Source: Eledone cirrhosa
Taxonomy: Eukaryota
Direction of reading: 5' to 3'
Assembly: GCA_964016885.1 (NCBI GenBank)
Contig: OZ024759.1
Coordinates: 5,208,001-5,272,000, forward strand
Length of the DNA stretch: 64,000 nt
The stretch's first letter is position 1; every line of letters begins with the position of its first letter. The translations under genes and the position numbers were made by a program. The notes under the pieces are model-generated. The model was given only the letters and a program-made list of their open reading frames with translations, was not told the DNA's origin and searched no databases. Of the stretch, positions 26,120 to 64,000 are shown in pieces.

Positions 26120-26740
26120 TTAACCTTTTTGATATCAAAATACCTGACACCGATTAACTGTTTTACTCTATATATTTATCTAAAAACCTCCCACTATAGT
26201 GTTATGTAAGAACTTTTGTTAAGTTATGTTCCATCCAAAATATTAGTGATGAAAATCTCAGTTATATAACTATAGCCCTTCAAATTCTTCATTATATAAA
26301 AATTTGTTTAAATTTGTATGCAATATATTTCTTTAGTAATATGGTAATGAAAGGATTAATGACATAGACAGTGTCTTTAAGTAGAAATATGGTAATGAAA
26401 GGGTTAATGATATAGACAGTGTCTTTAAGTAGAAATATGTAATGAAAGGGTTAATGACATAGACAGTGTCTTTAAGTAGAGATATGGTAATGAAAGGGTT
26501 AATGACATAGACAGTGTCTTTAAGTAGAAATATGGTAATGAAAGGGTTAATGACATAGACAGTGTCTTTAAGTAGAGATATGTAATGAAAGGGTTAATGA
26601 CATAGACAGTGTCTTTAAGTAGAAATATGGTAATGAAAGGGTTAATGACATAGACAGTGTCTTTAAGTAGAGATATGTAATGAAAGGGTTAATGACATAG
26701 ACAGTGTCTTTAAGTAGAAACTTGGTAATGAAAGGTTTAA
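26120..26740. mobile_element. Second TTAA-type MITE whose right terminus is amplified as a 48-bp tandem repeat
   Basis: Left ttaacctttttgatatc; right ggtaatgaaagggttaa repeated about 8 times from 26335. Confidence 0.6.
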
Positions 26741-27049
26741 TCCAAATATTCAATTACTTTGAAGCAAGAAACAAATGCAAATATCCGACTAACTTGAATT
26801 TTCCATCGGATTTTAAAATTATTTTACGTATTTTTGCTATATTAGTTTTTTTAACTTAATATTATTATTTTTCTATTGTATTTCTTTATAATTATGTGAA
26901 TACAAAAATATTTTATATTGTAACTTTTTATGTTAAATAATAAATGACTATAAAACTATACAAAAACTATAATAATTTCACAAAAGTCGCATTCATAGGT
27001 ATATCAACTTATGCGACCTCCTTTATTACTGCCTAATTTAAATGTGGCC

Positions 27050-27722
27050 TCTAATAGACAGTATCTTTCATAGACAGTATCTGACATAGACAGTATCTGA
27101 CATAGACAGTATCTTTCATTAGAAATATGGTAATGAAAGGGTTAATGACATAGACAGTGTCTTTTATTAGAAATGTGGTAATGAAAGGGTTAATGACATA
27201 GACAGTGTCTTTTATTAGAAATGTGGTAATGAAAGGGTTAATGACATAGACAGTGTCTTTTATTAGAAATGTGGTAATGAAAGGGTTAATGACATAGACA
27301 GTGTCTTTTATTAGAAATGTGGTAATGAAAGGGTTAATGACATAAACAGTGTCTTTCATTAGAAATATGGTAATGAAAGGGTTAATGACATAGACAGTGT
27401 CTTTTATTAGAAATGTGGTAATGAAAGGGTTAATGACATAGACAGTGTCTTTCATTAGAAATGTGGTAATGAAAGGGTTAATGACATAGACAGTGTCTTT
27501 TATTAGAAATGTGGTAATGAAAGGGTTAATGACATAGACAGTGTCTTTCATTAGAAATATGGTAATGAAAGGGTTAATGACATAGACAGTGTCTTTCATT
27601 AGAAATGTGGTAATGAAAGGGTTAATGACATAGACAGTGTCTTTTATTAGAAATGTGGTAATGAAAGGGTTAATGACATAGACAATGTCTTTCATTAGAA
27701 ATATGGTAATGAAAGGGTTAAT
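27050..27722. repeat. 48-bp minisatellite
   Basis: Unit gacatagacagtgtctttcattagaaatatggtaatgaaagggttaat. Confidence 0.92.
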
Positions 27723-30211: not shown

Positions 30212-33200
30212 TTATTAGAAATATGGTAATGAAAGGGTTAATGACATAGACAGTGTCTTTCATTAGAAATATGGTAATGAAAGGGTTAATGACATAGACA
30301 GTGTCTTTCATTAGATATATGGTAATGAAGGGGTTAATGACATAGACAGTGTCTTTCATTAGATATATGGTAATGCAGGGGTTAATAACATAGGTAGTGT
30401 CTTTCATTAGATATATGGTAATGAAAGGGTTAATGACATAGACAGTGTCTTTTATTAGATATATGGTAATGAAGGGGTTAATGACATAGACAGTGTCTTT
30501 CATTAGATATATGGTTATGAAAGGGTTAATGACATAGGTAGTGTCTTTCATTAGAAATATGGTAATGAAAGGGTTAATGACATAGACAGTGTCTTTCATT
30601 AGATATATGGTAATGAAGGGGTTAATGACATAGACGGTGTCTTTCATTAGATATATGGTAATGCAGGGGTTAATAACATAGGTAGTGTCTTTCATTAGAT
30701 ATATGGTAATGAAAGGGTTAATGACATAGACAGTGTCTTTTATTAGATATATGGTAATGAAGGGGTTAATGACATAGACAGTGTCTTTCATTAGATATAT
30801 GGTAATGAAAGGGTTAATGACATAGACAGTGTCTTTCATTAGATATATGGTAATGAAGGGGTTAATGACATAGACAGTGTCTTTCATTAGATATATGGTA
30901 ATGCAGGGGTTAATAACATAGGTAGTGTCTTTCATTAGAAATATGGTAATGAAAGGGTTAATGACATAGACAGTGTCTTTCATTAGAAATATGATAATGA
31001 AAGGGTTAATGACATATAGTGTCTTTCATTAGAAATATGGTAATGAAAGGGTTAATGACATAGACAGTGTCTTTCATTAGATATATGGTAATGCAGGGGT
31101 TAATAACATAGGTAGTGTCTTTCATTAGATATATGGTAATGAAAGGGTTAATGACATAGACAGTGTCTTTTATTAGAAATATGATAATGAAAGGGTTAAT
31201 GACATATAGTGTCTTTCATTAGAAATATGGTAATGAAAGGGTTAATGACATAGACAGTGTCTTTCATTAGATATATGGTAATGAAGGGGTTAATGACATA
31301 GACAGTGTCTTTCATTAGATATATGGTAATGAAAGGGTTAATGACATAGACAGTGTCTTTCATTAGATATATGGTAATGAAGGGGTTAATGACATAGACA
31401 GTGTCTTTCATTAGATATATGGTAATGCAGGGGTTAATAACATAGGTAGTGTCTTTCATTAGAAATATGGTAATGAAAGGGTTAATGACATAGGCAGTGT
31501 CTTTCATTAGAAATATGATAATGAAAGGGTTAATGACATATAGTGTCTTTCATTAGAAATATGGTAATGAAAGGGTTAATGACATAGACAGTGTCTTTCA
31601 TTAGATATATGGTAATGCAGGGGTTAATAACATAGGTAGTGTCTTTCATTAGATATATGGTAATGAAAGGGTTAATGACATAGACAGTGTCTTTTATTAG
31701 AAATATGGTAATGAAAGGGTTAATGATATAGACAGTGTCTTTCACTAGATATATGGTAATGAAGGGGTTAATGACATAGACAGTGTCTTTCATTAGAAAT
31801 ATGGTAATGAAAGGGTTAATGACATAGGTAGTGTCTTTAATTAGAAATATAGTAATGAAAGGGTTAATGACATAGACAGTGTCTTTTATTAGAAATATGA
31901 TAATGAAAGGGTTAATGATATAGACAGTGTCTTTCACTAGATATATGGTAATGAAGGGGTTAATGACATAGACAGTGTCTTTCATTAGAAATATGGTAAT
32001 GAAAGGGTTAATGACATAGGTAGTGTCTTTAATTAGAAATATAGTAATGAAAGGGTTAATGACATAGACAGTGTCTTTCATTAGAAATATGGTAAGGAAA
32101 GGGTTAATGACATAGACAGTGTCTTTCATTAGAAATATGGTAATGAAAGGGTTAATGACATAGGTAATGTCTTTAATTAGAAATATAGTAATGAAAGGGT
32201 TAATGACATAGACAGTGTCTTTCATTAGAAATATGGTAATGAAAGGGTTAATGACATAGACAGTGTCTTTCATTAGAAATATGGTAATGAAAGGGTTAAT
32301 GACATAGACAGTGTCTTTCATTAGAAATATGGTAATGAAAGGGTTAATGACATAGACAGTGTCTTTCATTAGAAATATGGTAATGAAAGTGTTAATGACA
32401 TATACAGTGTCTTTCATTAGAAATATGGTAATGAAAGGGTTAATGACATAGACAGTGTCTTTCATTAGAAATATGGTAATGAAAGGGTTAATGACATAGA
32501 CAGTGTCTTTCATTAGAAATATGGTAATGAAAGGGTTAATGACATAGGTAATGTCTTTAATTAGAAATATAGTAATGAAAGGGTTAATGACATAGACAGT
32601 GTCTTTCATTAGAAATATGGTAAGGAAAGAGTTAATGACAGACAGTGTCTTTCATTAGATATATGGTAATGAAAGGGTTAATGACATAGACAGTGTCTTT
32701 CATTAGAAATATGGTAATGAAAGGGTTAATGACATAGACAGTGTCTTTCATTAGAAATATGGTAATGAAAGGGTTAATGACATATACAGTGTCTTTCATT
32801 AGAAATATGGTAATGAAAGGGTTAATGACATAGACAGTGTCTTTCATTAGAAATATGGTAATGAAAGGGTTAATGACATAGACTGTGTCTTTCTTTAGAA
32901 ATATGGTAATGAAAGGGTTAATGACATATACAGTGTCTTTCATTAGAAATATGGTAATGAAAGGGTTAATGACATAGACAGTGTCTTTCATTAGAAATAT
33001 GGTAATGAAAGGGTTAATGACATATACAGTGTCTTTCACTAGAAATATGATAATTGTTTCTACTTTTGGCACAAGGCCTGCAATTACCCAGTCTATTACT
33101 GGTACTTTATTTTATCGACCCCATAAGGATGAAAGGCAAAGTTAACCTCGGCGGGATTTGAACTCAGAATGGCAAGGGCCGTAACTCTATGCGTCAAAGC

Positions 33201-33410
33201 ATGGCGTCCGACCCTCTACCGATACTGCCAATCCAATTAGATATATGATAATGAAAGGGTTAATGACATAGACAGTGTCTTTCATTAGAAATATGGTAAT
33301 GAAAGGGTTAATGACATAGACAGTGTCTTTCATTAGAAATATGGTAATGAAAGGGTTAATGACATATACTGTGTCTTTCATTAGAAATATGGTAGTAGGA
33401 AGTTTAATTA
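30212..33410. repeat. 48-bp minisatellite, about 60 copies, interrupted by a SINE
   Basis: Same unit as 27050-27722. Confidence 0.95.
33050..33235 (-). mobile_element. SINE family B inserted in the 48-bp satellite
   Basis: Full SINE B sequence; flanks tagaaatatgataat / tagatatatgataat. Confidence 0.8.
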
Positions 33411-49463: not shown

Positions 49464-52400
49464 CCCTTTAGCATTTACATTACCCTGTATTTACTATTGT
49501 ATTTTCATGGTAAAGGCTTTACCTCACATAATTATCTCACGTAGCATTTACATTACTCTGCATTTACTATTGTATTTTAATGGTAAAGGCTTTACCTCAC
49601 ATAACATTTACATTACCCTGTATTTACTATTGTATTTTCATGGTAAAGGCTTTACCTCACATAATTATCTCATAACATTTACATTACTCTGTATTTACTA
49701 TTGTATTTTCATGGTAAAGGCTTTACCTCACATAATTATCTCACATAACATTTACATTACCCTGTATTTACTATTGTATTTTCATGGTAAAGGTTTTACC
49801 TCACATAATTATCTCATAACATTTAAATTACTCTGTATTTACTATTGTATTTTCATGGTAAAGGCTTTACCTCACATAATTATCTCACATAACATTTACA
49901 TTACCCTGTATTTACTATTGTATTTTCATGGTAAAGGCTTTACCTCACATAATTATCTCATAACATTTACATTACCCTGTATTTACTATTGTATTTTCAT
50001 GGTAAAGGCTTTACCTCACATAACATTTACATTACTCTGTATTTACTATTGTATTTTCATGGTAAAGGCTTTACCTCACATAATTATCTCACATAACATT
50101 TACATTACTCTGTATTTACTATTGTATTTTCATGGTAAAGGCTTTACCTCACATAATTATCTCACATAGCATTTACATTACTCTGTATTTACTATTGTAT
50201 TTTCATGGTAAAGGCTTTACCTCACATAATTATCTCATAACATTTACATTACTCTGTATTTACTATTGTATTTTCATGGTAAAGGCTTTACCTCACATAA
50301 TTATCTCACATAACATTTACATTACCCTGTATTTACTATTGTATTTTCATGGTAAAGGCTTTACCTCACATAATTATCTCACATAACATTTACATTACCC
50401 TGTATTTACTATTGTATTTTCATGGTAAAGGCTTTACCTCACATAATTATCTCATAACATTTACATTACTCTGTATTTACTATTGTATTTTCATGGTAAA
50501 GGCTTTACCTCACATAATTATCTCACATAACATTTACATTACCCTGTATTTACTATTGTATTTTCATGGTAAAGGCTTTACCTCACATAATTATCTCATA
50601 ACATTTACATTACTCTGTATTTACTATTGTATTTTCATGGTAAAGGCTTTACCTCACATAATTATCTCACATAACATTTACATTACCCTGTATTTACTAT
50701 TGTATTTTCATGGTAAAGGCTTTACCTCACATAATTATCTCATAACATTTACATTACTCTGTATTTACTATTGTATTTTCATGGTAAAGGCTTTACCTCA
50801 CATAATTATCTCACATAACATTTACATTACCCTGTATTTACTATTGTATTTTCATGGTAAAGGCTTTACCTCACATAATTATCTCATAACATTTACATTA
50901 CCCTGTATTTACTATTGTATTTTCATGGTAAAGGCTTTACCTCACATAATTATCTCACATAACATTTACATTACTCTGTATTTACTATTGTATTTTCATG
51001 GTAAAGGCTTTATCTCACATAACATTTACATTACTCTGTATTTACTATTGTATTTTCATGTTAAAGGCTTTACCTCACATAATTCTCATAACATTTACAT
51101 TACTCTGTATTTATTATTGTATTTTCATGGTAAAGGCTTTACCTCACATAATTATCTCACATAACATTTACATTACTCTGTATTTACTATTGTATTTTCA
51201 TGGTAAAGGCTTTACCTCACATAATTATCTCACATAACATTTACATTACTCTGTATTTACTATTGTATTTTCATGGTAAAGGCTTTACCTCACATAATTA
51301 TCTCACGTAACATTTACATTACCCTGTATTTACTATTGTATTTTCATGGTAAAGGCTTTACCTCACATAATTATCTCACATAACATTTACATTACTCTGT
51401 ATTTACTATTGTATTTTCATGGTAAAGGCTTTACCTCACATAATATCTCACATAACATTTACATTACCCTGTATTTACTATTGTATTTTCATGGTAAAGG
51501 CTTTACCTCACATAATTATCTCACATAACATTTACATTACCCTGTATTTACTATTGTATTTTCATGGTAAAGGCTTTACCTCACATAATATCTCACATAA
51601 CATTTACATTACTCTGTATTTACTATTGTATTTTCATGGTAAAGGCTTTACCTCACATAACATTTACATTACCCTGTATTTACTATTGTATTTTCATGGT
51701 AAAGGCTTTACCTCACATAATATCTCACATAACATTTACATTACTCTGTATTTACTATTGTATTTTCATGGTAAAGGCTTTACCTCACATAACATTTACA
51801 TTACTCTCTATTTACTATTGTATTTTCATGGTAAAGGCTTTACCTCACATAATTATCTCACATAACATTTACATTACCCTGTATTTACTATTGTATTTTC
51901 ATGGTAAAGGCTTTACCTCACATAATTATCTCACATAACATTTACATTACTCTGTATTTACTATTGTATTTTCATGGTAAAGGCTTTACCTCACATAATA
52001 TCTCACATAACATTTACATTACCCTGTATTTACTATTGTATTTTCATGGTAAAGGCTTTACCTCACATAATATCTCACATAATATTTACATTACCCTGTA
52101 TTTACTATTGTATTTTCATGGTAAAGGCTTTACCTCACATAATATCTCATAACATTTACATTACTCTGTATTTACTATTGTATTTTCATGGTAAAGGCTT
52201 TACCTCACATAATTATCTCACATAACATTTACATTACCCTGTATTTACTATTGTATTTTCATGGTAAAGGCTTTACCTCACATAATATCTCACATAACAT
52301 TTACATTACTCTGTATTTACTATTGTATTTTCATGGTAAAGGCTTTACCTCACATAATACCTCACATAACATTTACATTACTCTCTATTTACTATTGTAT

Positions 52401-52724
52401 TTTCATGGTAAAGGCTTTACCTCACATAATTATCTCACATAACATTTACCTTACTCTGTATTTACTATTGCATTTTCATGGTAAAGGCTTTACCTCACAT
52501 AATTATCTCACATAACATTTACATTACTCTGTATTTACTATTGTATTTTCATGGTAAAGGCTTTACCTCACATAATTATCTCACATAATATTGAATCTAC
52601 AAGATTTTAATATTATTTATTTTGAGAAGAAAACCTTAACATCAGTATGAGTGGCCAGTTGCAGCTGATTTGAACAGAGGTTAGAGAATTCTGGCCGGAT
52701 ATGGCCAGTTTAAATGCTAAAGGG
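49464..52724 (+). mobile_element. piggyBac-like MITE with internal 60-73-bp unit amplified over 40 times
   Basis: TTAA|ccctttagcattta...taaatgctaaaggg|TTAA; same family as 7138-7358. Confidence 0.9.
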
Positions 52725-54582: not shown

Positions 54583-54829
54583 CTGCAGAAAAACATGGTA
54601 AGAAAGTTAAAACAAAAAACAATTAGCAATGGTATTTGGTGGTGGTGGTAGTGGGGATGGTGGTGAGGAGGAGGGAGATTTGGGTAAAGTTTAGTCAAAA
54701 ACTGATTGGCAAACATGGGCTTGGACGAGTGCAAGATTTAGGGCACATGAAGCCCTGTGCTAGTTATGTTATGAGGCCTCTTACTCGTAAAAAATTCATC
54801 ATAAAAAATTGTGCCAAATTTAGAATTAA

Positions 54830-55626
54830 CCCTTTAGCATTTAAACCGGTTGTATTCGGCCAGAATTTTCTCAACTCTTTCTATTCAAACTGGCTGTAAC
54901 TGGACACTCATACTTATATTAAGGTATTGTTCTCAAAATAAATAACATCAAAATCTCATAGATTCGATATTATGTGAGATAATTATGAGGGCGGTGGTTT
55001 GGCAGTATCGGTAGAGGGTCGGACGCCATGCTTTGCCGCATAGAGTTACGGCCCTTTATGATTTTAGTTCAATCCCGCCGAGGTTAACTTTGCCTTTCAT
55101 CCTTATGGGGTTGATAAAATAAAGTACCAGTCACTCACTAGGGTCGATTTAATCGACGTTCGCCTACCCCAAAATTGCTGGCCTTGTGCCTATATAAAAA
55201 ACCATTATGTGAGATATTATGTGAGGTAAAGCCTTTACTGTGTAAATACAATAGTATATATAGAGTAATGTAAATGTTATGTGAGGTATTATGTGAGGTA
55301 AAGCCTTTACTGTGACAATACAATAGTATATATAGAGTAATGTAAATGTTATGTGAGATATTATGTGAGGTAAAGCCTTTACTGTGACGATACAATAGTA
55401 TATATAGAGTAATGTAAATGTTATGTGAGGTATTATGTGAGGTAAAGCCTTTACTGTGACAATACAATAGTATATATAGAGTAATGTAAATGTTATGTGA
55501 GATATTATGTGAGGTAAAGCCTTTACTGTGAAAATACAATAGTATATATAGAGTAATGTAAATGTTATGTGAGATATTATGTGAGGTAAAGCCTTTACTG
55601 TGAACATACAATAGTATATATAGAGT
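54830..55626 (-). mobile_element. One end of a piggyBac-like MITE with SINE B insertion (about 54988-55207) and about six 72-bp internal repeats
   Basis: TTAA|ccctttagcatttaaaccgg, reverse complement of the 52590-52724 end. Confidence 0.85.
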
Positions 55627-55862
55627 GGTTTCTTTATTTGCCACTAGGGCACAAAAGGTAGGGACAGATACAAGGGGGGATGTTTACATATAATTAACGA
55701 GTACAAAAATATAACAATGAAATAACAACAACAAACGAAGTCCTCAATAGGGAGGGGGCATTAACATGGGTCGCACACACCCCGGAAAAATGTGCAACCC
55801 TTCTCCTCAGGAGCACAAAGAGTAGGTGATTCCCTCGTCTCCTCTTTTTCCTCTTCTTTCAC

Positions 55863-58800
55863 CTACAGGCTGATATAGAGAGAAGACCCATTCACTCTGG
55901 TCATTCTCCCTACTTTCACCCACCTTTCATAAAACTTGCTGGGGTAGAGCACCTCTCTCTCCATTCTGATCCTTCTTTTAAAATGGTATTTGAAAAAGGG
56001 GACCAGTTGTTGGCCGGAGAGATAGGTGTCTGACCTCAGCCCTTTCAGCCTCGTCCACCATACAACTTCTTTAGCCATGGCTATCACACAGAGAAAAACC
56101 GCCTCTCCTTCGTTTTTGAAAGGGGGAGGCGGTTTGATTGTGACAATGGACTCGGTGGTCAACCGGATTGGTCCCACCTTCGACAGTAGTCGTTCCACAT
56201 AGCCCCACAGGTCAGCAATGCCTGGGCAGTGTACGAATGCGTGCGCAACCATTTCGTCATCATGCACGCATCTCGGACAGATCTTATTCGAAGGATCCCT
56301 ACCCAAGCTCCCATGCCTGGAGCTTGTCTCGAACGGGTAGAGCCCCTCGGTAGCACTGCCAAGCCAGGGACTTTTGGATGTTGTCCATCGGTCCAGGGCC
56401 AAACGTCCTACCGAACAGACTGGCCAGTTCATCTTCCTCCATGCCTAGAGCTTCTCCGAGAGCATCGTCGCACCTGCTGCGTACCAACCCTCTATAGAAT
56501 GTCGAGGTGGAGTCTCCACTGATTGCCGGGTCCGCTTTCCAGAGGGCCGTGAGCGCCTGGGCACATTCAATGTGCCAGTCGCCCACTTTTCTCGGTCTTT
56601 GCTTGACCCATGATTGCAGCTCGGTGAGCGAGACGAGTCTGGGAAAGGCTCGCCTCACAAACGGGGCCCACACCGGTTGACCGGTGAGGAATACCTGGAG
56701 GTGCCGTAGCCTTAATGCGTGTTTACGCATCTGTAGCCATGGCATCCCCAGCCCTCCTTTCGAAGGGTGTTGACAGCAGATGGATCTCCTCCCCAAAGGG
56801 GTCCGCTTGTTCCAAAGAAATTGGAACAGCGCGCACTCCATTTTGGCGAGTCTTTTCACTGGGCAAGGCACGACGGTCAAGCGGTAGTAGATGACGGATG
56901 CTATATAAGTATTCGCCACCTCCGCTCGACCTTTCAGGGATAGTTTGCACTGGGCCCACACCCTGGCCGTTACCTTGTTCCAGTTTTTCTCCACCTGGAG
57001 GTCTGGTCCGAACGAGACCCCAAGCAGCTTCACCGGGCCCTCTGTCCAGCGTCCGACGACCTCGTTGGAGGGCATCGGTTTGCCTCTCCATGTTCCGAGT
57101 TGCAAACCGACGGACTTGTCCCGGTTCAGCTTGGCTCCTGTAAACCTTTCATATTCCTCCAGTAAGGTGCCAATTTGCGAGGTTTTCGACACCATTACTG
57201 TCACGTCATCGGCGTAGGCCGACGCCGCTTTCTGCAATCCCGGTTCCAAAGTGATGCCCTGCAACCGCTCCAACTTCCGCAGTAGTGGCTCAAGAGCCAG
57301 CACATACAGAAGGGAGGAGAGAGGGCATCCCTGTCCGATGGATCGCATGATTTGGAACGGCTCCGAGAGGTGGCCGTTCACCTTGACCCTTGAGCAGACG
57401 TTGCTGCTGTGCATCGCAGCAATCCAACCCCTGAAAACGGGTCCGAAGTCTGCCGCCGTGAGCACCGCATCCAGGTAACGATGGTCAACCCTATCGAAAG
57501 CTTTAGATTGATCCAAGTTGATCAGGGCCCCACTAAAGCCGGGTTCATTCCCTACCCTCTCTATGATGTATCGCATAAGGTGGAGATTGTCGTGAATGGA
57601 CCTGGACGGGATTGCGCATGTCTGCGCTTCTCCCACCAGGTTTCCGACGACAAGCGCCAACCTCTTCGCTAACACCTTGGCCAAAATCTTTAACTCTGTA
57701 TTTAGCAGAGTTATGGGCCTGAAGTTACTTATGTCATCCCCCTTGTTCTCACCCTCCTCACCAGCGTAACTACGCCCTTGGTCACAGAACTGGGAATTCT
57801 CCCGTTCTGCTGCCAGTTGCAGTAGACCGCTTCGAGGATATCAGAGAACAAGTCCGGCATCGCTACATATAGCTCGTAAGGTAGACCATCGACACCCGGG
57901 GATTTGCGTTTGCCGCTTTGGCTCAGCGCCGCCCCTATCTCAGCAGCTGAAATCGGCCTTTCGCAGGACTTCGCCTCCGCGTCCGAGAGGCGCGGCAGAC
58001 CGTCGAGGTATGGATTGAAATCCATAGTCTCACCCGGCGCGCCGCCCCTCTCGAACAGTCATGCAAAGTGCCACTGAAAGGCCGCACACATCTGCCCAGG
58101 TTCAAGGATCACACGCCCATCCTGGTCCTTCAAAGACCGAATCGTGGACTTGTTACCACTTTTTGCCTCTGTCACTCGGGCCCAGCTAACAGCTTTGGCT
58201 CCCTCATTACCCAAAGCACGTATTTTACTCCTGACAACGCAGCCTTCATGCTTCACCTCAAAGAACTGGTCTAAGGCCATTCTTGATGCCAGCACGCTGG
58301 CTACATTGCCACTCCTAATCGCCTCATCTACTCTATCTACTAATTCCCTTTCCGTCTTGTTCCTATCCCTTGCTAATTCCTGACTAAAACCTATCGATTC
58401 TATTCTAATTGCTCTCTTAAGAGAGATCCACCACCTGTTGTTGACAATTGCCCCTGTCAAACTCTGCTTAACTAACGTGCTAATCCATTTACTGTAAGCT
58501 TTGCTTGTCGGTAAGGACAAGTTCAGCTTCCAGTAACCGGGTCCCTGTCTATGGGTTCTATCAAGGTTGGCTATGCAGGTCACTAACTTGTGATCCGAAT
58601 AGTCAACCATGAACATTTTTGGACAGCTAAATGTGTCCCTATCCTTCTCTCTAACTAGGATCCTATCTAGGTACGACCTAGAGCCGCTGCGATTGGTCCA
58701 CGTCCATAGTGGTACAGTCGGAAAATCTAGTCGATATCTATCGGCCAGGTCAAATCGGCCAATTAACCGTTTGAGGCTTTTACACCCCTCTGTATTGGCA

Positions 58801-59267
58801 CATGCCCCTACATAGTCCCAACGTGCATCCAGGATACCATTCCAGTCCCCCACTAAAAGCAAGGAGCTGGACGTTCCCAGAAAAGTTTCCAGATGTTGGA
58901 AGTATTCCGGCCGTGCTGCCCAAAAAGGGGCGTACGCAGCAATTAGTCTAAGGGCTCCACTTTCACTACTGCCGACTTCTAAAACCACCAGTCGACCCTC
59001 CGGGTCCAGGTGCACCTTCTGTATGGTGAGGCTCAGGTATTTTCGCAGCAGAACGACAACTCCACCCCCACCCCCCGGTTGACAGAGAGATGCGAAGATC
59101 TCAAAGTCGTCGAAGAGGGGCGCCAGTTGGCGCTCGCTGCTGATCCTGGACTCGCAAATAGCCATTACATCCATTCTATGCGACCTGAGATCGTTTAAAA
59201 GTTTGCCTTGTTTCCAAGACAGTCCCAGGCCGCGTACATTCAGACACCCAACTCTTATATCAGCCAT
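55863..59267 (-). pseudogene. Tx1 ORF2 (APE endonuclease, reverse transcriptase, zf-RVT), disrupted
   Basis: CLNVRGL, ICESR, GDWN, SYLDRIL, SDH; KSPGVDGLP; DQSKAFDRVDH, QGCPLS, YADD; CPRC..E..HAFVHC; split into four ORFs. Confidence 0.88.
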
Positions 59268-59272
59268 GTTGG

Positions 59273-61036
59273 TTAAAAGAGGAAGGACCTACCTGTTCGG
59301 CTCCTGAGGAGCAGGTTGCACAATATCCATGGGCGTATTGGAGGGATTGTTTGGTGGGGTGTTGTTTTGTGGTGGGGTGGGGTGGGGGTGTTTGGTGAGG
59401 TGTGGGTGGGGAAACGTTTCAAGAGGACGCGGTTATAGGGTCGAGTACATGTTTTCCCCACGTCCTCAGGAAAGTTCTCTCTTAGTTTTGCATAGGTGTC
59501 CATTGGGAGTCTTATCCTTTTTAAATGCGGTTTGTTGGCCGCGCTTGCAAAGAATTGCCCTTCAGTTTCCACCGAAGGGTCTTTGTGTATTGTTTTTACT
59601 AGTTCTCTGTTATTTGTGTTAATGTATGTATACTGTTTTATTTGTGTTGTGTTTGTTTGTTGTTCTTGTGTGTGCTTGCGTTTTGTTGTATGTGTTATGT
59701 TTTGGGGCGGGGCGGATTTTGTTTGTTCTGTTTGTTTTGTTTTTGTTGGTGGTTGTGTGTTTCTTTCATTTATGTTCGAGTGGTGCTTTCTTTTTTTCCT
59801 TTTTACAGGTTGGAAGGGTCCCCCCCTCTTCGTCACTAGGTGCTATTTCAGCTGGGTCCTCGTCCGTGCTGTCGGGTAGTGGTGTATTTTGGGGTTTTGT
59901 TGTGTTTGTGTGTGTTTTTGGAGTTGTTTTGGGTGGGGCCGTGTCTTGTGTTATTTTTCCGTGTTGTTTTTTGTTGTTGTTGTGGTGGTGGTAGTGGTGG
60001 TGGTGGCGGTGGTAGTGTGTGGGGTGTAGGCAAAAGAGCCTTTTTTTTGTCAATTGAGGGCAGGCAGCCCTTAGATGACCCCTGCTTGAACAGTAGTAAC
60101 ATATGGGCCTCCTACCCTGGGCTGAAATGTATATAAATGTTTCTCCATCGAGGGACACCCTCTGTGGTATTCTAGCTATTCGTTCTGGTCTCATTTGGAC
60201 CAGAACCTCCACGCTCAAACCGCAGAAAACGTCTGTGGTGACTTCTCCTACTGAAAGGATTCCGTCCTCGTCTTCTAAAAATCCTGTTAGTACCCAGGAA
60301 ATGCATTAATTTGGCCGGATTCCGGAGACTCTTATTTTCTGCGTTCTTTTCCCCAAATATGTGGGGAGAAATGTGTGTAGCTTGGAAACAATTGGCGACA
60401 CAGAGTATTTCCTGGCCGTCAATTGATCCTTCATTAGCACCGTTATATTCCCATAGAGTGGCCCTTTTTGTATGAACGATATATCACTCCACACACTTTT
60501 TAGGACCAGCTCAATTTCTTTTGGGATAATTGAGCTGGTTTCCTTGTTATGTTGGAAATTGTTCTGAAAGATATCGTTCTTAGTGTCGTGTCTCTTTTGA
60601 TTTCTTGTGGGGAGGTGATTGTGAAGTCTCCTCCTTCTTTGAAAGTTACATACTGTTTTGCTTCCTTCATCTTTTCTCTCAGAGTTGTAATGTCCAGTTG
60701 CTTGCAGGTCTGTGTTTTCCGGACCGCCTGTGCAAAGGAGGCACCAGTAGTGGGTTCGCTTTGTTTGGTGTTATCGTTATTTTTTCCTTGGTTGGTGTTG
60801 TGACTATTGCTGTTGTTGATCATGCTGTTATTGTCATTGTTGTTTTTGTCTGCGTTTATGTGACTTTCTGGGTTTTCACCCATTTTTACAAATTTTTCTT
60901 TTAATTCCGTGTTCCATGTTTCTTTATCAGAAGTGAGGAGGGAAGACTTAGAGCCTTGTGCTTCTAGCTTCTCTGTATCACCTTTCTTAGGGGGCGTGGC
61001 TTTCTTGTTAGGATGAGATGTGAAAATTCCGTCCAT
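59273..61036 (-). pseudogene. Tx1 ORF1 (gag-like, zinc knuckle), frameshifted
   Basis: SFAQAVRK, CYYCSSRGHLRAAC, low-complexity T/P/K tail; split into four ORFs, ends just upstream of ORF2 ATG. Confidence 0.75.
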
Positions 61037-61246
61037 TTCTATCAGTTTGCCGTAATAAATTTTTAAAAGGAAAATTCGCCCCAAAAAGGGGCGAAAATAA
61101 ATAAACTCAAAGTTTGACGACCAAGGCAAGGGGTTAACGTATATTACAGTATAAAAAAATTAATCAAAACTCACTTTTGAGTAAGTAAATCCAACTCGGT
61201 AGCCGAGCTTGTTCACACACGTCAACACACGTCTCTCGTATACGAG

Positions 61247-61599
61247 ATGTTATGTGAGATATTATGTGAGGTAAAGCCTTTACTGTGAAAATACAATAGT
61301 ATATATAGAGTAATGTAAATGTTATGTGAGATATTATGTGAGGTAAAGCCTTTACTGTGAAAATACAATAGTATATATAGAGTAATGTAAATGTTACGTG
61401 AGATATTATGTGAGGTAAAGCCTTTACTGTGAAAATACAATAGTATATATAGAGTAATGTAAATGTTACGTGAGATATTATGTGAGGTAACGCCTTTACT
61501 GTGAAAATACAATAGTATATATAGAGTAATGTAAATGTTATGTGAGGTATTATGTGAGGTAAAGCCTTTACCACAAAAATACAATAGTATATATAGAGT
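61247..61599. repeat. About five 72-bp MITE-internal repeats separating the two Tx1 copies
   Basis: atgttatgtgagatattatgtgaggtaaagcctttactgtgaaaatacaatagtatatatagagta. Confidence 0.92.
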
Positions 61600-64000
61600 G
61601 GTTTCTTTATTTGCCACTAGGGCACAAAAGGTAGGGACAGATACAAGGGGGGAAGTTTACATACAATTAACGAGTACAAAAATATAACAATGAAATAACA
61701 ACAACAAACGAAGTCCTCAATAGGGAGGGGGCATTAACATGGGTCGCACACACCCCGGAAAAAATGTGTAACCCTTCTCCTCAGGAGCACAAAGAGTAGG
61801 TGCTTCCCTCGTCTCCGCTTTTTCCTCTTCTTTCACCTACAGGCTGATATAGAGAGAAGACCCATTCACTCTGGCCATTCTCCCTACTTTCACCCACCTT
61901 TCATAAAACTTGCTGGGGTAGAGCACCTCTCTCTCCATTCTGATCCTTCTTTTAAAATGGTATTTGAAAAAGGGGACCAGTTGTTGGCCGGAGAGAAAGG
62001 TGTCTGACCTCAGCCCTTTCAGCCTCGTCCACCATACAACTTCTTTAGCCATGGCTACCACACAGAGAAAAACCGCCTCTCCTTCGTTTTTGAAAGGGGG
62101 AGGCGGTTTGATCGTGACAATGGACTCGGTGGTCAACCGGATTGGTCCCACCCTCGACAGTAGTCGTTCCACATAGCCCCACAGGTCAGCAATGCCTGGG
62201 CAGTGTACGAATGCGTGCGCAACGGTTTCGTCATCATGCACGCATCTCGGACAGATCTTATTCAAAGGATCTCTACCCAGGCTCCCATGTCTGTGGAGCT
62301 TGTCTCGAACGGGTAGAGCCCCTCGGTAGCACTGCCAAGCCAGGGACTTTTGGAAGTTGTCCATCGGTCCAGGGCCAAACGTCCTACCGAACAGACTGGC
62401 CAGTTCATCTTCCTCCATGCCTAGAGCTTCTCCGAGAGCATCGTCGCACCTGCTGCGTACCAACCCTCTATAGAATGTCGAGGTGGAGTCTCCACTGATT
62501 GCCGGGTCCGCTTTCCAGAGGGCCGTGAGCGCCTGGGCACATTCAATGTGCCAGTCGCCCACTTTTCTCGGTCTTTGCTTGACCCAGGATTGCAGCTCGG
62601 TGAGCGAGACGAGTCTGGGAAAGGCTCGCCTCACAAACGGGGCCCACACCGGTTGACCGGTGAGGAATACCTGGAGGTGCCGTAGCCTTAATGCGTGTTT
62701 ACGCATCTGTAGCCACGGCATCCCCAGCCCTCCTTTCGAAGGGTGTTGACAGCAGATGGATCTCCTCACCAAAGGGGTCCGCTTGTTCCAAAGAAATTGG
62801 AACAGCGCGCACTCCATTTTGGCGAGTCTTTTCACTGGGCAAGGCACGACGGTCAAGCGGTAGTAGATGACGGATGCTATATAAGTATTCGCCACCTCCG
62901 CTCGACCTTTCAGGGATAGTTTGCACTGGGCCCACTTCTGGGTGAGTGCAAACACCCTGGCCGTTACCTCGTTCCAGTTTTTCTCCACCTGGAGGTCTGG
63001 TCCGAACCAGACCCCAAGCAGCTTCACCGGGCCCTCCGTCCAGCGTCCGACGACGTCGTTGGAGGGCATCGGTTTGCCTCTCCATGTTCCGAGTTGCAAA
63101 CCGACGGACTTGTCCCGGTTCAGCTTGGCTCCTGTAAACCTTTCATATTCCTCCAGTAAGGTGCCGATCTCACCGATTTGCGAGGTTTTCGACACCATTA
63201 CTGTCACGTCATCGGCGTAGGCCGACGCCGCTTTCTGCAATCCCGGTTCCAAAGGGATGCCCTGCAACCGCTCCAACTTCCGCAGTAGTGGCTCAAGAGC
63301 CAGCACATACAGTAGGGAGGAGAGAGGGCATCCCTGTCGGATGGATCGCATGATTTGGAACGGCTCCGAGAGGTGGCCGTTCACCTTGACCCTTGAGCAG
63401 ACGTTGCTGCTGTGCATCGCAGCAATCCAACCCCTGAAAACGGGTCCGAAGCCTGCCGCCGCGAGCACCGCATCCAGGTAACGATGGTCAACCCTATCGA
63501 AAGCTTTAGATTGATCCAAGTTGATCAGGGCCCCACCAAAGCCGGGTTCATTCCCTACCCTCTCTATGATGTATCGCATAAGGTGGAGATTGTCGTGAAT
63601 GGACCTGGACGGGATTGCGCATGTCTGCGCTTCTCCCACCAGGTTTCCAACGACAAGCGCCAACCTCTTCGCTAACACCTTGGCCAAAATCTTTAACTCT
63701 GTATTTAGCAGAGTTATGGGCCTGAAGTTACTTATGTCATCCCCCTTGTTCTCATCCTTCCTCACCAGCGTAACTACGCCCTTGGTCACAGAACTGGGAA
63801 TTCTCCCGTTCTGCTGCCAGTTGCAGTAGACCGCTTCGAGGATATCGGAGAACAAGGCCGGCATCGCTACATATAGCTCGTATGGTAGACCATCGAGACC
63901 CGGGGATTTGCGTTTGCCGCATTGGCTCAGCGCCGCCCCTATCTCAGCAGCTGAAATCGTCCTTTCGCAGGACTTCGCCTCCGCGTCCGAGAGGCGCGGC
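61600..64000 (-). mobile_element. Tx1-clade retrotransposon copy 2, cut by window edge
   Basis: Highly similar to 55627-58000 with identical 3' junction. Confidence 0.92.
61837..64000 (-). CDS. Tx1 ORF2 reverse transcriptase and zinc finger, open over the whole visible part
   Basis: 675-aa ORF; frame stays open upstream to the window edge (PRLSDAEAKSC...KSPGLDGLPYELY). Confidence 0.9.
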   Translation of the reverse strand, partial: PRLSDAEAKSCERTISAAEIGAALSQCGKRKSPGLDGLPYELYVAMPALFSDILEAVYCNWQQNGRIPSSVTKGVVTLVRKDENKGDDISNFRPITLLNTELKILAKVLAKRLALVVGNLVGEAQTCAIPSRSIHDNLHLMRYIIERVGNEPGFGGALINLDQSKAFDRVDHRYLDAVLAAAGFGPVFRGWIAAMHSSNVCSRVKVNGHLSEPFQIMRSIRQGCPLSSLLYVLALEPLLRKLERLQGIPLEPGLQKAASAYADDVTVMVSKTSQIGEIGTLLEEYERFTGAKLNRDKSVGLQLGTWRGKPMPSNDVVGRWTEGPVKLLGVWFGPDLQVEKNWNEVTARVFALTQKWAQCKLSLKGRAEVANTYIASVIYYRLTVVPCPVKRLAKMECALFQFLWNKRTPLVRRSICCQHPSKGGLGMPWLQMRKHALRLRHLQVFLTGQPVWAPFVRRAFPRLVSLTELQSWVKQRPRKVGDWHIECAQALTALWKADPAISGDSTSTFYRGLVRSRCDDALGEALGMEEDELASLFGRTFGPGPMDNFQKSLAWQCYRGALPVRDKLHRHGSLGRDPLNKICPRCVHDDETVAHAFVHCPGIADLWGYVERLLSRVGPIRLTTESIVTIKPPPPFKNEGEAVFLCVVAMAKEVVWWTRLKGLRSDTFLSGQQLVPFFKYHFKRRIRMEREVLYPSKFYERWVKVGRMARVNGSSLYISL

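Follow-up and report, generated by a model that had tools for sequence, protein, structure and literature searches.

A 64,000-nt stretch of the Eledone cirrhosa genome (G000:C20:5208001-5272000; below, the window, with stretch positions 1-64000 as coordinates) carries two copies of a long interspersed element (LINE) within the tandem repeats of a miniature inverted-repeat transposable element (MITE). The LINE represents a family of about 300 copies, 5.65 kb in length, with two ORFs (open reading frames) of the apurinic endonuclease (APE)/reverse transcriptase (RT) type. We consider it probable that this young family of the L1/Tx1 group inserts at one base (AGAGT/AATGTAA, the slash marking the junction) of a 72-bp repeat in a piggyBac-derived MITE, by means of an APE nick and an RNA leader.

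Insertion specificity across the genome

We searched the genome with an internal 26-mer of the LINE 3′ end and obtained 281 exact matches, with none for the reversed control. The junction AGAGT/GGTTTC was exact at 253 of these 281 ends. The original prediction had read the two window copies as a LINE that apparently targets the tandem repeat inside a piggyBac-like MITE and had called for a genome-wide tabulation of 3′ flanks. The flanks were not unrelated, and the specificity held both in these matches and in 59 of 60 fetched 3′ ends. The fetched ends were sampled at C1-C20 positions among the first 100 listed of the 281 matches; 40 of the 60 whole-element stretches were taken in order of position and 20 were partly picked to enrich truncated copies. 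Fifty-eight ended at AGAGT/ and one at a variant unit (ATAGT/), and the only end outside the unit belonged to a sister family, 80% identical, in (GATA)n. All 59 sampled 3′ ends of the family itself therefore lay in the 72-bp unit, in a single orientation, compared with the more than 20% of flanks by which target preference has been defined (PMC4494074; this and the other PMC sources are cited for the passages available). The same junction was present in all of the 30 best DNA matches, a sample biased to near-identical copies, and in 29 of the first 30 matches by position (7 of them with the end variant GATTTC), the other being a (GATA)n sister.

By its unspliced 17-mer, the target was present as an empty site 63,886 times, the right end of the MITE occurred in exact form at least 10,681 times, and about 0.4% of the target sites were filled (empty to filled, about 200:1). 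The numbers of empty sites and of MITE right ends indicate that the repeat is the target and not the tail of the LINE, which settles a doubt that the original prediction had raised itself. The base-exact targeting is almost certainly real.

It has also to be considered that the 3′ repeat is the element's own tail, or that the specificity is owed not to the endonuclease but to a read-through RNA whose 3′ end pairs with the target. The element has no poly(A), its 3′ flank is always the unit, and the stretch of unit that adjoins the 3′ end in L132 and L147 is only 15-30 nt long, as this explanation would have it. However, local variants in the 3′ flanks come as close as a few bases to the junction (L111, L143, and L144 are examples), empty sites are in the large excess given above, and the short flank of L132 is explained by a later insertion. 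We regard the explanation as very improbable on these grounds; 3′ pairing over a few nucleotides may contribute to targeting.

Independence of the insertions

We compared the 29 loci that held the LINE, the MITE arm, and the outer flank. The median divergence was 1.7% for the LINEs and 17.8% for the arms. The closest LINE pairs (0.12-0.5%) sat in arms 14-26% apart with unrelated outer flanks, and no arm pair was closer than 6.2%. Near-identical LINEs in diverged MITEs with unrelated flanks indicate that the insertions were independent. The proposal of the original prediction that the composite could be mobilised as cargo failed in this comparison, which contained no matched pair of LINE and arm, and the local duplication of one insertion, which it had named as a possible refutation, does not account for the family. 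A variant common to C16 and C20 was considered as a candidate for cargo transposition and was rejected as a segmental duplication with shared outer flanks.

The comparison also largely refutes the view that the family goes back to a single ancestral insertion, or to a few, carried along passively as cargo of the MITE or by segmental duplication or unequal crossover, with no real sequence specificity. Tandem blocks of LINE and unit do occur (six LINEs on C1 and five on C10), the window locus is segmentally duplicated, the genome contains an active-looking piggyBac transposase, and LINE and arm distances are weakly correlated (rho 0.12). Against these points stand the LINE pairs of down to 0.12% in strongly diverged arms, ten differently truncated copies at the same base, each with its own duplication, and insertions in varied unit positions, from first to last. 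Passive spread is hardly credible as the source of the pattern. A short duplicate LINE 5′ end with its own repeat array was observed about 780 bp from a full-length copy (L166+L167, C1:11.026-11.027 Mb).

The 5′ junction and a putative RNA leader

The 5′ junction CGTATACGAG/ATGTTATGTGAG was found exactly at 294 sites, the first 100 of which were inspected, and the internal 5′ 25-mer gave 266 matches. The 5′ end was kept in 37 of the 39 position-ordered family copies (about 95% full length). Only 1 of these 39 copies stopped within 1.5 kb of the 3′ end, compared with 16 of 28 sister copies, or 14 of 28 when L225 and L230, which reach the end at the DNA level, are set aside. Every full-length 5′ junction, compared with the array, looks like a loss of AATGTAA (7 bp), whereas all ten truncated copies keep AATGTAA after the target duplication. 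The duplications of the truncated copies were 2, 2, 6, 7, 9, 9, 13, 18, 42, and 65 nt, counted with microhomology and at most one mismatch.

The first 27 nt of the unit equalled the reference in 52 of 60 units adjoining a 5′ end (identical contexts merged, with some paralogues and tandem duplicates remaining), and in 30 and 22 of 60 for the two units that come after it (p = 1e-5 in a sign test). No such excess was seen in the unit's distal 30 nt (28/60, 30/60, and 35/60). Variants of both neighbouring arrays at unit positions up to 25 were absent from the LINE-adjoining unit (0/4; three loci), and those at positions of 31 and above were nearly always present in it (18/19; eight loci). At L124 and L128, variants present in every neighbouring unit are missing from the junction unit, and only from its first 25 nt. 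In only 2 of 33 cases did a variant private to the nicked unit appear on the other side of the LINE. The repeat-like 5′ nucleotides without local variants up to position 25 suggest that 25-30 nt travel with the element, and from this analysis a mechanism with a target-homologous RNA leader is quite likely. A uniform 65-bp duplication was rejected from the locus-level variant comparison.

The same targeting could in principle be combined with a fixed staggered cut, giving a 7-bp target deletion or a 65-bp duplication, and with selection for consensus units, so that the uniform 5′ junction would involve no RNA leader. The exact lack of AATGTAA at every full-length junction would fit such a cut, as would the truncated L148 with the same 65-nt junction and L144 with private variants on both sides. 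However, eight of the ten truncated copies keep AATGTAA and duplicate 2-18 nt, the ninth duplicates 42 nt, and the next units are often variant. The scarcity of private variants of the nicked unit across the LINE and the junction units of L124 and L128 also speak against a staggered cut, and we consider it improbable.

The 5′ region 61130-61280 folded better than shuffled sequences (z = -3.06). An Rfam scan of 54700-62000 at E values up to 5 returned no ribozyme and three matches at chance level, and no hepatitis delta virus (HDV)-type fold was recognised by eye in the predicted fold of the 5′ end. The contig depth was similar at both LINE ends in two contig runs of unrecorded kind, which cannot show RNA ends. 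A 14-bp palindrome, TCTCGTATACGAGA, spans the 5′ junction at 61234-61247, and the 5′ untranslated region (UTR) contains a CGCCCC-N-GGGGCG hairpin (approximately 61085-61103) that is kept in all sister families seen (L261-L269).

The unit contains TATATATA approximately 30 nt upstream of the inferred RNA start. At this spacing the motif would suit a promoter box, and the target unit may supply the promoter through it. The (GATA)n sisters have family-specific target-like 5′ ends without a box of the TATATATA type, which makes an internal promoter that starts transcription upstream at least as likely.

Sister families in (GATA)n

A degenerate pattern of the 3′ end matched 7,551 ends genome-wide, 4,917 of which were directly flanked by GATAGATA. 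Among 28 sampled copies outside the MITE, 21 ended at AGATA/, three at AGAGA/, and one distant copy lay in (TAA)n (L236). The nearest sisters were 80-82% identical to the MITE family in the endonuclease and 87-89% in the RT. The sister LINEs in (GATA)n are often nested in tandem, e.g., L161+L130+L162 (C2:325.72-325.75 Mb) and L221-L270.

Quick maximum-likelihood trees were calculated from the last 365 residues of ORF2, leaving out the copies without an unbroken piece of 270 aa; the tree for the approximately unbiased (AU) test, considered in the Discussion, also omitted one duplicate and four rows each from the outgroup and the MITE family. The MITE family formed one clade (SH-aLRT 99) nested in a clade with two (GATA)n groups (98), and outside the latter were one more (GATA)n group, the third, and the copy in (TAA)n. 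A target switch from (GATA)n to the MITE unit is likely from these relationships.

Twenty-one endonuclease positions, among them W116, A118, E121, L16, and A157-N158, were fixed in 12 MITE copies and absent from nine (GATA)n copies. The hairpin core NRSGTSRSY is common to the MITE family and most sisters. The correspondence with the loops of L1 is putative and derives from the match to human L1 ORF2p.

The MITE and its piggyBac parent

A profile search of the genome with PF13843 gave 125 matches. The resident piggyBac family is 2.58 kb long and flanked by TTAA, with open frames of 499-558 aa in the eight copies checked, and these frames match the piggyBat and piggyBac transposases. It terminates with CCCTTTAGCATTCACATT, to which CCCTTTAGCATTTACATT corresponds at the right end of the MITE, and with CCCTTTAGC(G/A)TT(C/T)AAA. 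The MITE left end equals the piggyBac end of L210 in 23 of 23 nt. The first 200 nt or so of piggyBac can be aligned with the MITE arm and with most of the unit, whose last bases align instead to the inner part of the right terminal inverted repeat (TIR). The 72-bp unit bridges the point at which left-subterminal sequence is fused to this inner right TIR. The autonomous piggyBac therefore lacks the target as such, and the terminal TIR stays intact. LINEs insert where the 18-bp TIR motif on the right side of the MITE has its inner edge, at the junction that the internal deletion created. At the fetched loci, TTAA preceded 39 of 45 left TIRs and followed 48 of 53 right TIRs. The MITE is non-coding and measures approximately 225 bp when it has a single unit, its last 72 bp being the part that is tandemly amplified. 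At the sequence level, these alignments show the MITE to be a deletion derivative of the resident 2.58-kb piggyBac. Its piggyBac-like nature, as originally predicted, was borne out by the TTAA, the TIRs, the subterminal sequence in common with a piggyBac of the same genome, and the lack of coding capacity. The divergence of the arms suggests that the MITE activity is old. At least two resident piggyBac families (L192-L220; ends CCCTTTAGC... and CCCTTTCGTTAC...) were seen, several copies of which have open transposase frames.

On C1, 8 of 20 MITEs at 0.3-20 Mb were multi-unit, whereas all 20 at 40-51 Mb were single-unit (Fisher p = 0.003); without the two LINE-bearing MITEs, 6 of 18 were multi-unit in the distal region (p = 0.007). 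One of ten MITEs at 30-31 Mb was multi-unit. None of the 28 LINE 5′ junctions on C1 lay between 31 and 423 Mb. The multi-unit arrays and the LINE junctions are thus both distal on C1, and expanded arrays provide most of the landing sites, in agreement with the earlier idea that repeat expansion supplies the landing sites. The abundance of sites in distal arrays alone is enough to explain the LINE distribution, and it is possible that insertion needs two or more units.

Other inserts were observed in the unit. Those at L132:600-1012, L132:6787-7244, and L138:382-870 end with CTGTTAG before TAGTATATA, and one of them starts with TCTATATATATAAAA and has a 3′ hairpin; by these features, the inserts are presumably Helitron-like. 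Fragments of short interspersed elements (SINEs) or LINEs with (CAT)n tails lie at approximately ATAGTA/TATA in three loci (L111:6851-7205, L142:7378-7726, and L135:7047-7786), which makes this position a second, looser hotspot within the 72-bp repeat.

Coding content and classification of the LINE

ORF2 contains the Pfam domains PF03372, PF00078, and PF13966. Among solved structures it is closest to L1 ORF2p (human L1, E = 1e-53 over residues 4-857, compared with 3e-23 for R2). The element has two ORFs, no long terminal repeats (LTRs), and 5′ truncations with target duplications, and it belongs to the L1 group (L1/Tx1) of APE non-LTR retrotransposons; membership in the Tx1 clade is likely. 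ORF1 gave a zf-CCHC match below the Pfam cut-off (E = 0.007) and no match to Transposase_22, and its look-alikes in the Atlas were clusters of the CCHC, RRM, and ZCCHC3 types at 0.88-0.93. The ORF1 of Tx1 is of the RRM/zf-CCHC type rather than of the mammalian L1 type (PMC5203782). Among 49 copies with a 5′ end, ORF2 was open in 14 and both ORFs in 10. Among named sequences, that of Argonauta hians was closest in the RT (68% across 89% of the region), which makes an octopod the probable host.

Organization of the window locus

The MITE of the window starts on its left side with the target duplication TTAA (54826-54829), directly followed at 54830 by CCCTTTAGCA. The left TIR (CCCTTTAGCATTTA...) and an arm of approximately 157 bp (54830-54987, plus strand) are homologous to the 5′ end of the autonomous piggyBac. 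The arm contains a SINE-like insert (54988-55203, plus strand) with ATTATG on both sides and dispersed matches at 75-90% in other loci. Then follow 5.9 copies of the 72-bp unit (55204-55626, plus strand), the last of which ends at the insertion point AGAGT/. LINE copy 1 (55627-61246, minus strand; 5620 bp) is full length, with no poly(A) and the 3′ end ...AAATAAAGAAACC. Its ORF2 (55866-59267, minus strand; APE endonuclease, RT, and zf-RVT) is interrupted at 58059-58061 by a premature stop codon and shifted in frame twice, near 57750 and near 56317. Its ORF1 (59289-61036, minus strand, the low-end coordinate being approximate), which has a weak CCHC knuckle and comprises approximately 580 aa in unbroken copies, is broken by two frameshifts and one stop. 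The 5′ UTR occupies 61037-61246 (minus strand), and the putative target-homologous leader of approximately 25-30 nt would occupy 61247-61275 (minus strand, end coordinate approximate). The 353 bp between both LINEs (61247-61599, plus strand) consist of 4.9 units (4 × 72 + 65). The 3′ part of copy 2 fills 61600-64000 (minus strand), and this copy continues to G000:C20:5275253, the equivalent of window position 67253; its ORF2 is open over 1145 aa and its ORF1 is broken. Both copies are minus-strand LINEs with the domains Exo_endo_phos, RVT_1, and zf-RVT.

The junction atagtatatatagagt/ggtttc is present at 55626/55627 and again at 61599/61600, so that the same-base 3′ junctions of two elements in one orientation were verified as originally described. 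The repeat is, as also described there, the internal unit of the TTAA-flanked MITE that begins at 54830: beyond position 64000, where the original prediction had advised looking, copy 2 is followed by seven more units, and the MITE closes with AATGTAAATGCTAAAGAG-TTAA (L061:3751-3772; one TIR mismatch; terminal sequence ...GCTAAAGAG-TTAA). The earlier description was thus right in its main parts and missed the SINE-like insert, the recombination in copy 2 and the segmental duplication (both described below), and an empty copy of the same MITE (49464-52724, minus strand) with TTAA at both ends, approximately 44 units, and no LINE. It also did not see the putative 5′ leader taken from the target or the sister families in (GATA)n. 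Its interpretation stood for targeted insertion, for the repeat as target and not tail, for the piggyBac MITE, and for the array as a source of sites, and found no support for cargo mobilisation.

The locus is part of a segmental duplication of approximately 131 kb with approximately 99% identity. The duplicated segments lie on G000:C20 near 4.10, 4.23, 5.00, 5.13, and 5.26 Mb and on C16 near 0.45, 0.58, and 0.72 Mb, and the unit numbers of the arrays vary among these paralogues, showing fast array turnover. Each of four C20 paralogues holds one LINE approximately 0.1% from copy 1. Copy 2 is inserted in a different unit from copy 1 and differs from it by approximately 1.8% over the 3′ 3.5-4 kb, being near-identical over the 5′ 1.7 kb or so. 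Its plain local duplication from copy 1 was ruled out by this 3′ divergence, compared with approximately 0.1% among the paralogues. Copy 2 would be a recombinant, formed by a second insertion and a subsequent unequal crossover.

The window also contains 48-bp tandem arrays (26334-27722 and 30214-33394) with AAAGGGTTAA in the unit, resembling a piggyBac end with TTAA; they are possibly another MITE-derived satellite. Many other satellites, with units of 45, 51, 54, 60, 38, and 31 bp, occupy 700-46500, several of them apparently derived from pieces of SINEs or LINEs.

Discussion

In the explanation that we favour, the APE endonuclease would nick the strand reading ...TATAGAGT^AATGTAA (the caret marking the nick), as expected from the biochemistry of APE LINEs, and the nicked 3′-OH would serve as primer for reverse transcription, beginning at the 3′ end of an RNA that lacks poly(A). 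The RNA would start 25-30 nt upstream of CTCGTATACGAG, inside the neighbouring unit. The cDNA end would then anneal to a neighbouring unit and prime second-strand synthesis, as proposed for R2, and this annealing would give both the apparent 7-bp loss and the high share of full-length copies. The duplications of 2-18 nt in eight of the ten truncated copies would be those expected for microhomology joining. The arrays have expanded in distal regions, as the loci above show, and local duplication or unequal crossover has multiplied blocks of LINE and unit. The MITE-unit specificity would have arisen once from (GATA)n-targeting relatives.

Several observations weigh against parts of this explanation. 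In the truncated L148 the junction comprises all 65 nt, and a leader-only model can account for this solely through an internal deletion or a template jump. The paired unit differs by locus, L118 fitting a duplicate of the nicked unit and L127 the next unit; the unit used by the leader varies or is blurred by recombination. The leader-switch counts (0/4 and 18/19) rest on few, non-independent variants, and the 60 compared 5′ ends include paralogues and tandem duplicates. The last 5, 9, and 15 nt before the nick were conserved in 68, 65, and 57 of 69 cases, compared with 66, 64, and 59 for the same positions one unit away; as these bases are no better conserved than those one unit further, the recognised bases could not be mapped. 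The sampled 3′ ends came only from C1-C20 positions among the first 100 matches. Finally, monophyly of the (GATA)n groups is not rejected by the AU test (p = 0.156), and a switch from (GATA)n to the MITE is therefore the likelier direction and not a proven one.

A broader version, in which the LINE is licensed by its target, is tentative and, taken as a whole, rather doubtful. The unit would give the LINE both its promoter (TATATATA) and its leader of 25-30 nt, and only full-length copies at the correct base of a multi-unit array would be transcribed. The switch from (GATA)n would be recent and datable, having passed through a subset of the 21 endonuclease substitutions outside the tip of the β-hairpin loop, and the result would be convergent with the Xenopus pair Tx1L/Tx1D, with R2-like joining.

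Tx1L reportedly inserts in an internal tandem repeat of Tx1D. In the literature, the non-autonomous piggyBac family into which Tx1 of Xenopus inserts is Tx1D (PMC4494074, PMC6719617), and the specificity of the Tx1L endonuclease has been demonstrated in vitro (PMC1950540); further background on Tx1 in Xenopus and crocodilians is given in PMC1919474. The Eledone system parallels Tx1L/Tx1D, and also Tx2L, in that an APE LINE is specific to a non-autonomous piggyBac family, and the arrangement of a LINE in a piggyBac MITE is already known as a kind. It differs in phylum, target sequence, and MITE, and the close sisters that target (GATA)n suggest that its origin was independent of Tx1L/Tx1D.

Crocodilian Tx1 families prefer Mariner, Harbinger, or LTR elements or microsatellites, and flank-driven transcription has been suggested for SINEU (PMC4494074). 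Tx1-Mar, Tx1-9_AMi, and SINEU resemble the present case in their preference for DNA transposons (Mariner-N4 and Harbinger), with relatives in microsatellites. These families are old and described by preference, whereas the Eledone family is young (median 1.7%; both ORFs open in 10/49), base-exact, approximately 95% full length, and located in a tandem unit. Kibi and Koshi of the Tx1 clade target TC and TTC microsatellites (PMC3812793) and so resemble, by type of target, the (GATA)n and (TAA)n sisters; (GATA)n is absent from the APE-LINE targets listed in the passage of that source.

In R2 elements with ribozyme cleavage upstream, the RNA carries up to 36 nt of upstream rRNA at its 5′ end, which yields uniform 5′ junctions through cDNA annealing, and R2 elements without upstream target sequence have variable microhomology junctions (PMC3774820). 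The Eledone LINE would work like R2 at 5′ joining, and it is not R2: R2 has a restriction-like endonuclease, one ORF, a 28S rDNA target, and an HDV ribozyme, whereas the Eledone LINE has an APE endonuclease, two ORFs, a MITE target, and no ribozyme found by Rfam in 54700-62000. The Trichoplusia ni piggyBac and piggyBat resemble the resident elements in the TTAA duplication and the CCC...GGG ends, and the autonomous partner has a DDE_Tnp_1_7 transposase with a C-terminal zinc finger; the Eledone MITE differs in being non-coding, short, and amplified in its last 72 bp.

No earlier description of this pair of LINE and MITE was found among the titles and abstract openings of the literature. The repeat annotation of O. 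vulgaris lists 13 recently active L1-Tx1 families (PMC13282606), and neither "target" nor "nested" occurs in the main text of that source as available. This LINE family may be held in the O. vulgaris library and supplements, Repbase, or Dfam.

The system adds a second case among animals in which a LINE resides in a derivative of piggyBac, and it presents MITE-derived satellites as creators of safe sites in distal chromosome regions. A leader combined with approximately 95% full-length insertion would, if true, extend the R2 mechanism to APE LINEs, which bears on gene insertion by means of retrotransposons. The ways in which APE retrotransposons gain and change their sequence specificity are still poorly understood, and loop grafts between distant APE endonucleases gave ambiguous results on specificity (PMC1950540). 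In Eledone, two young groups coexist whose endonucleases are up to 82% identical and whose exact targets are distinct, (GATA)n and TATAGAGT^AATG. The main interest of the system lies in this pair, because closely related endonucleases with different exact targets make switching directly testable, and with only 21 fixed differences the test would take few swaps. If the origin of the MITE family from (GATA)n-targeting relatives is true, the two groups would be a ready test case for a change of DNA target in such elements.

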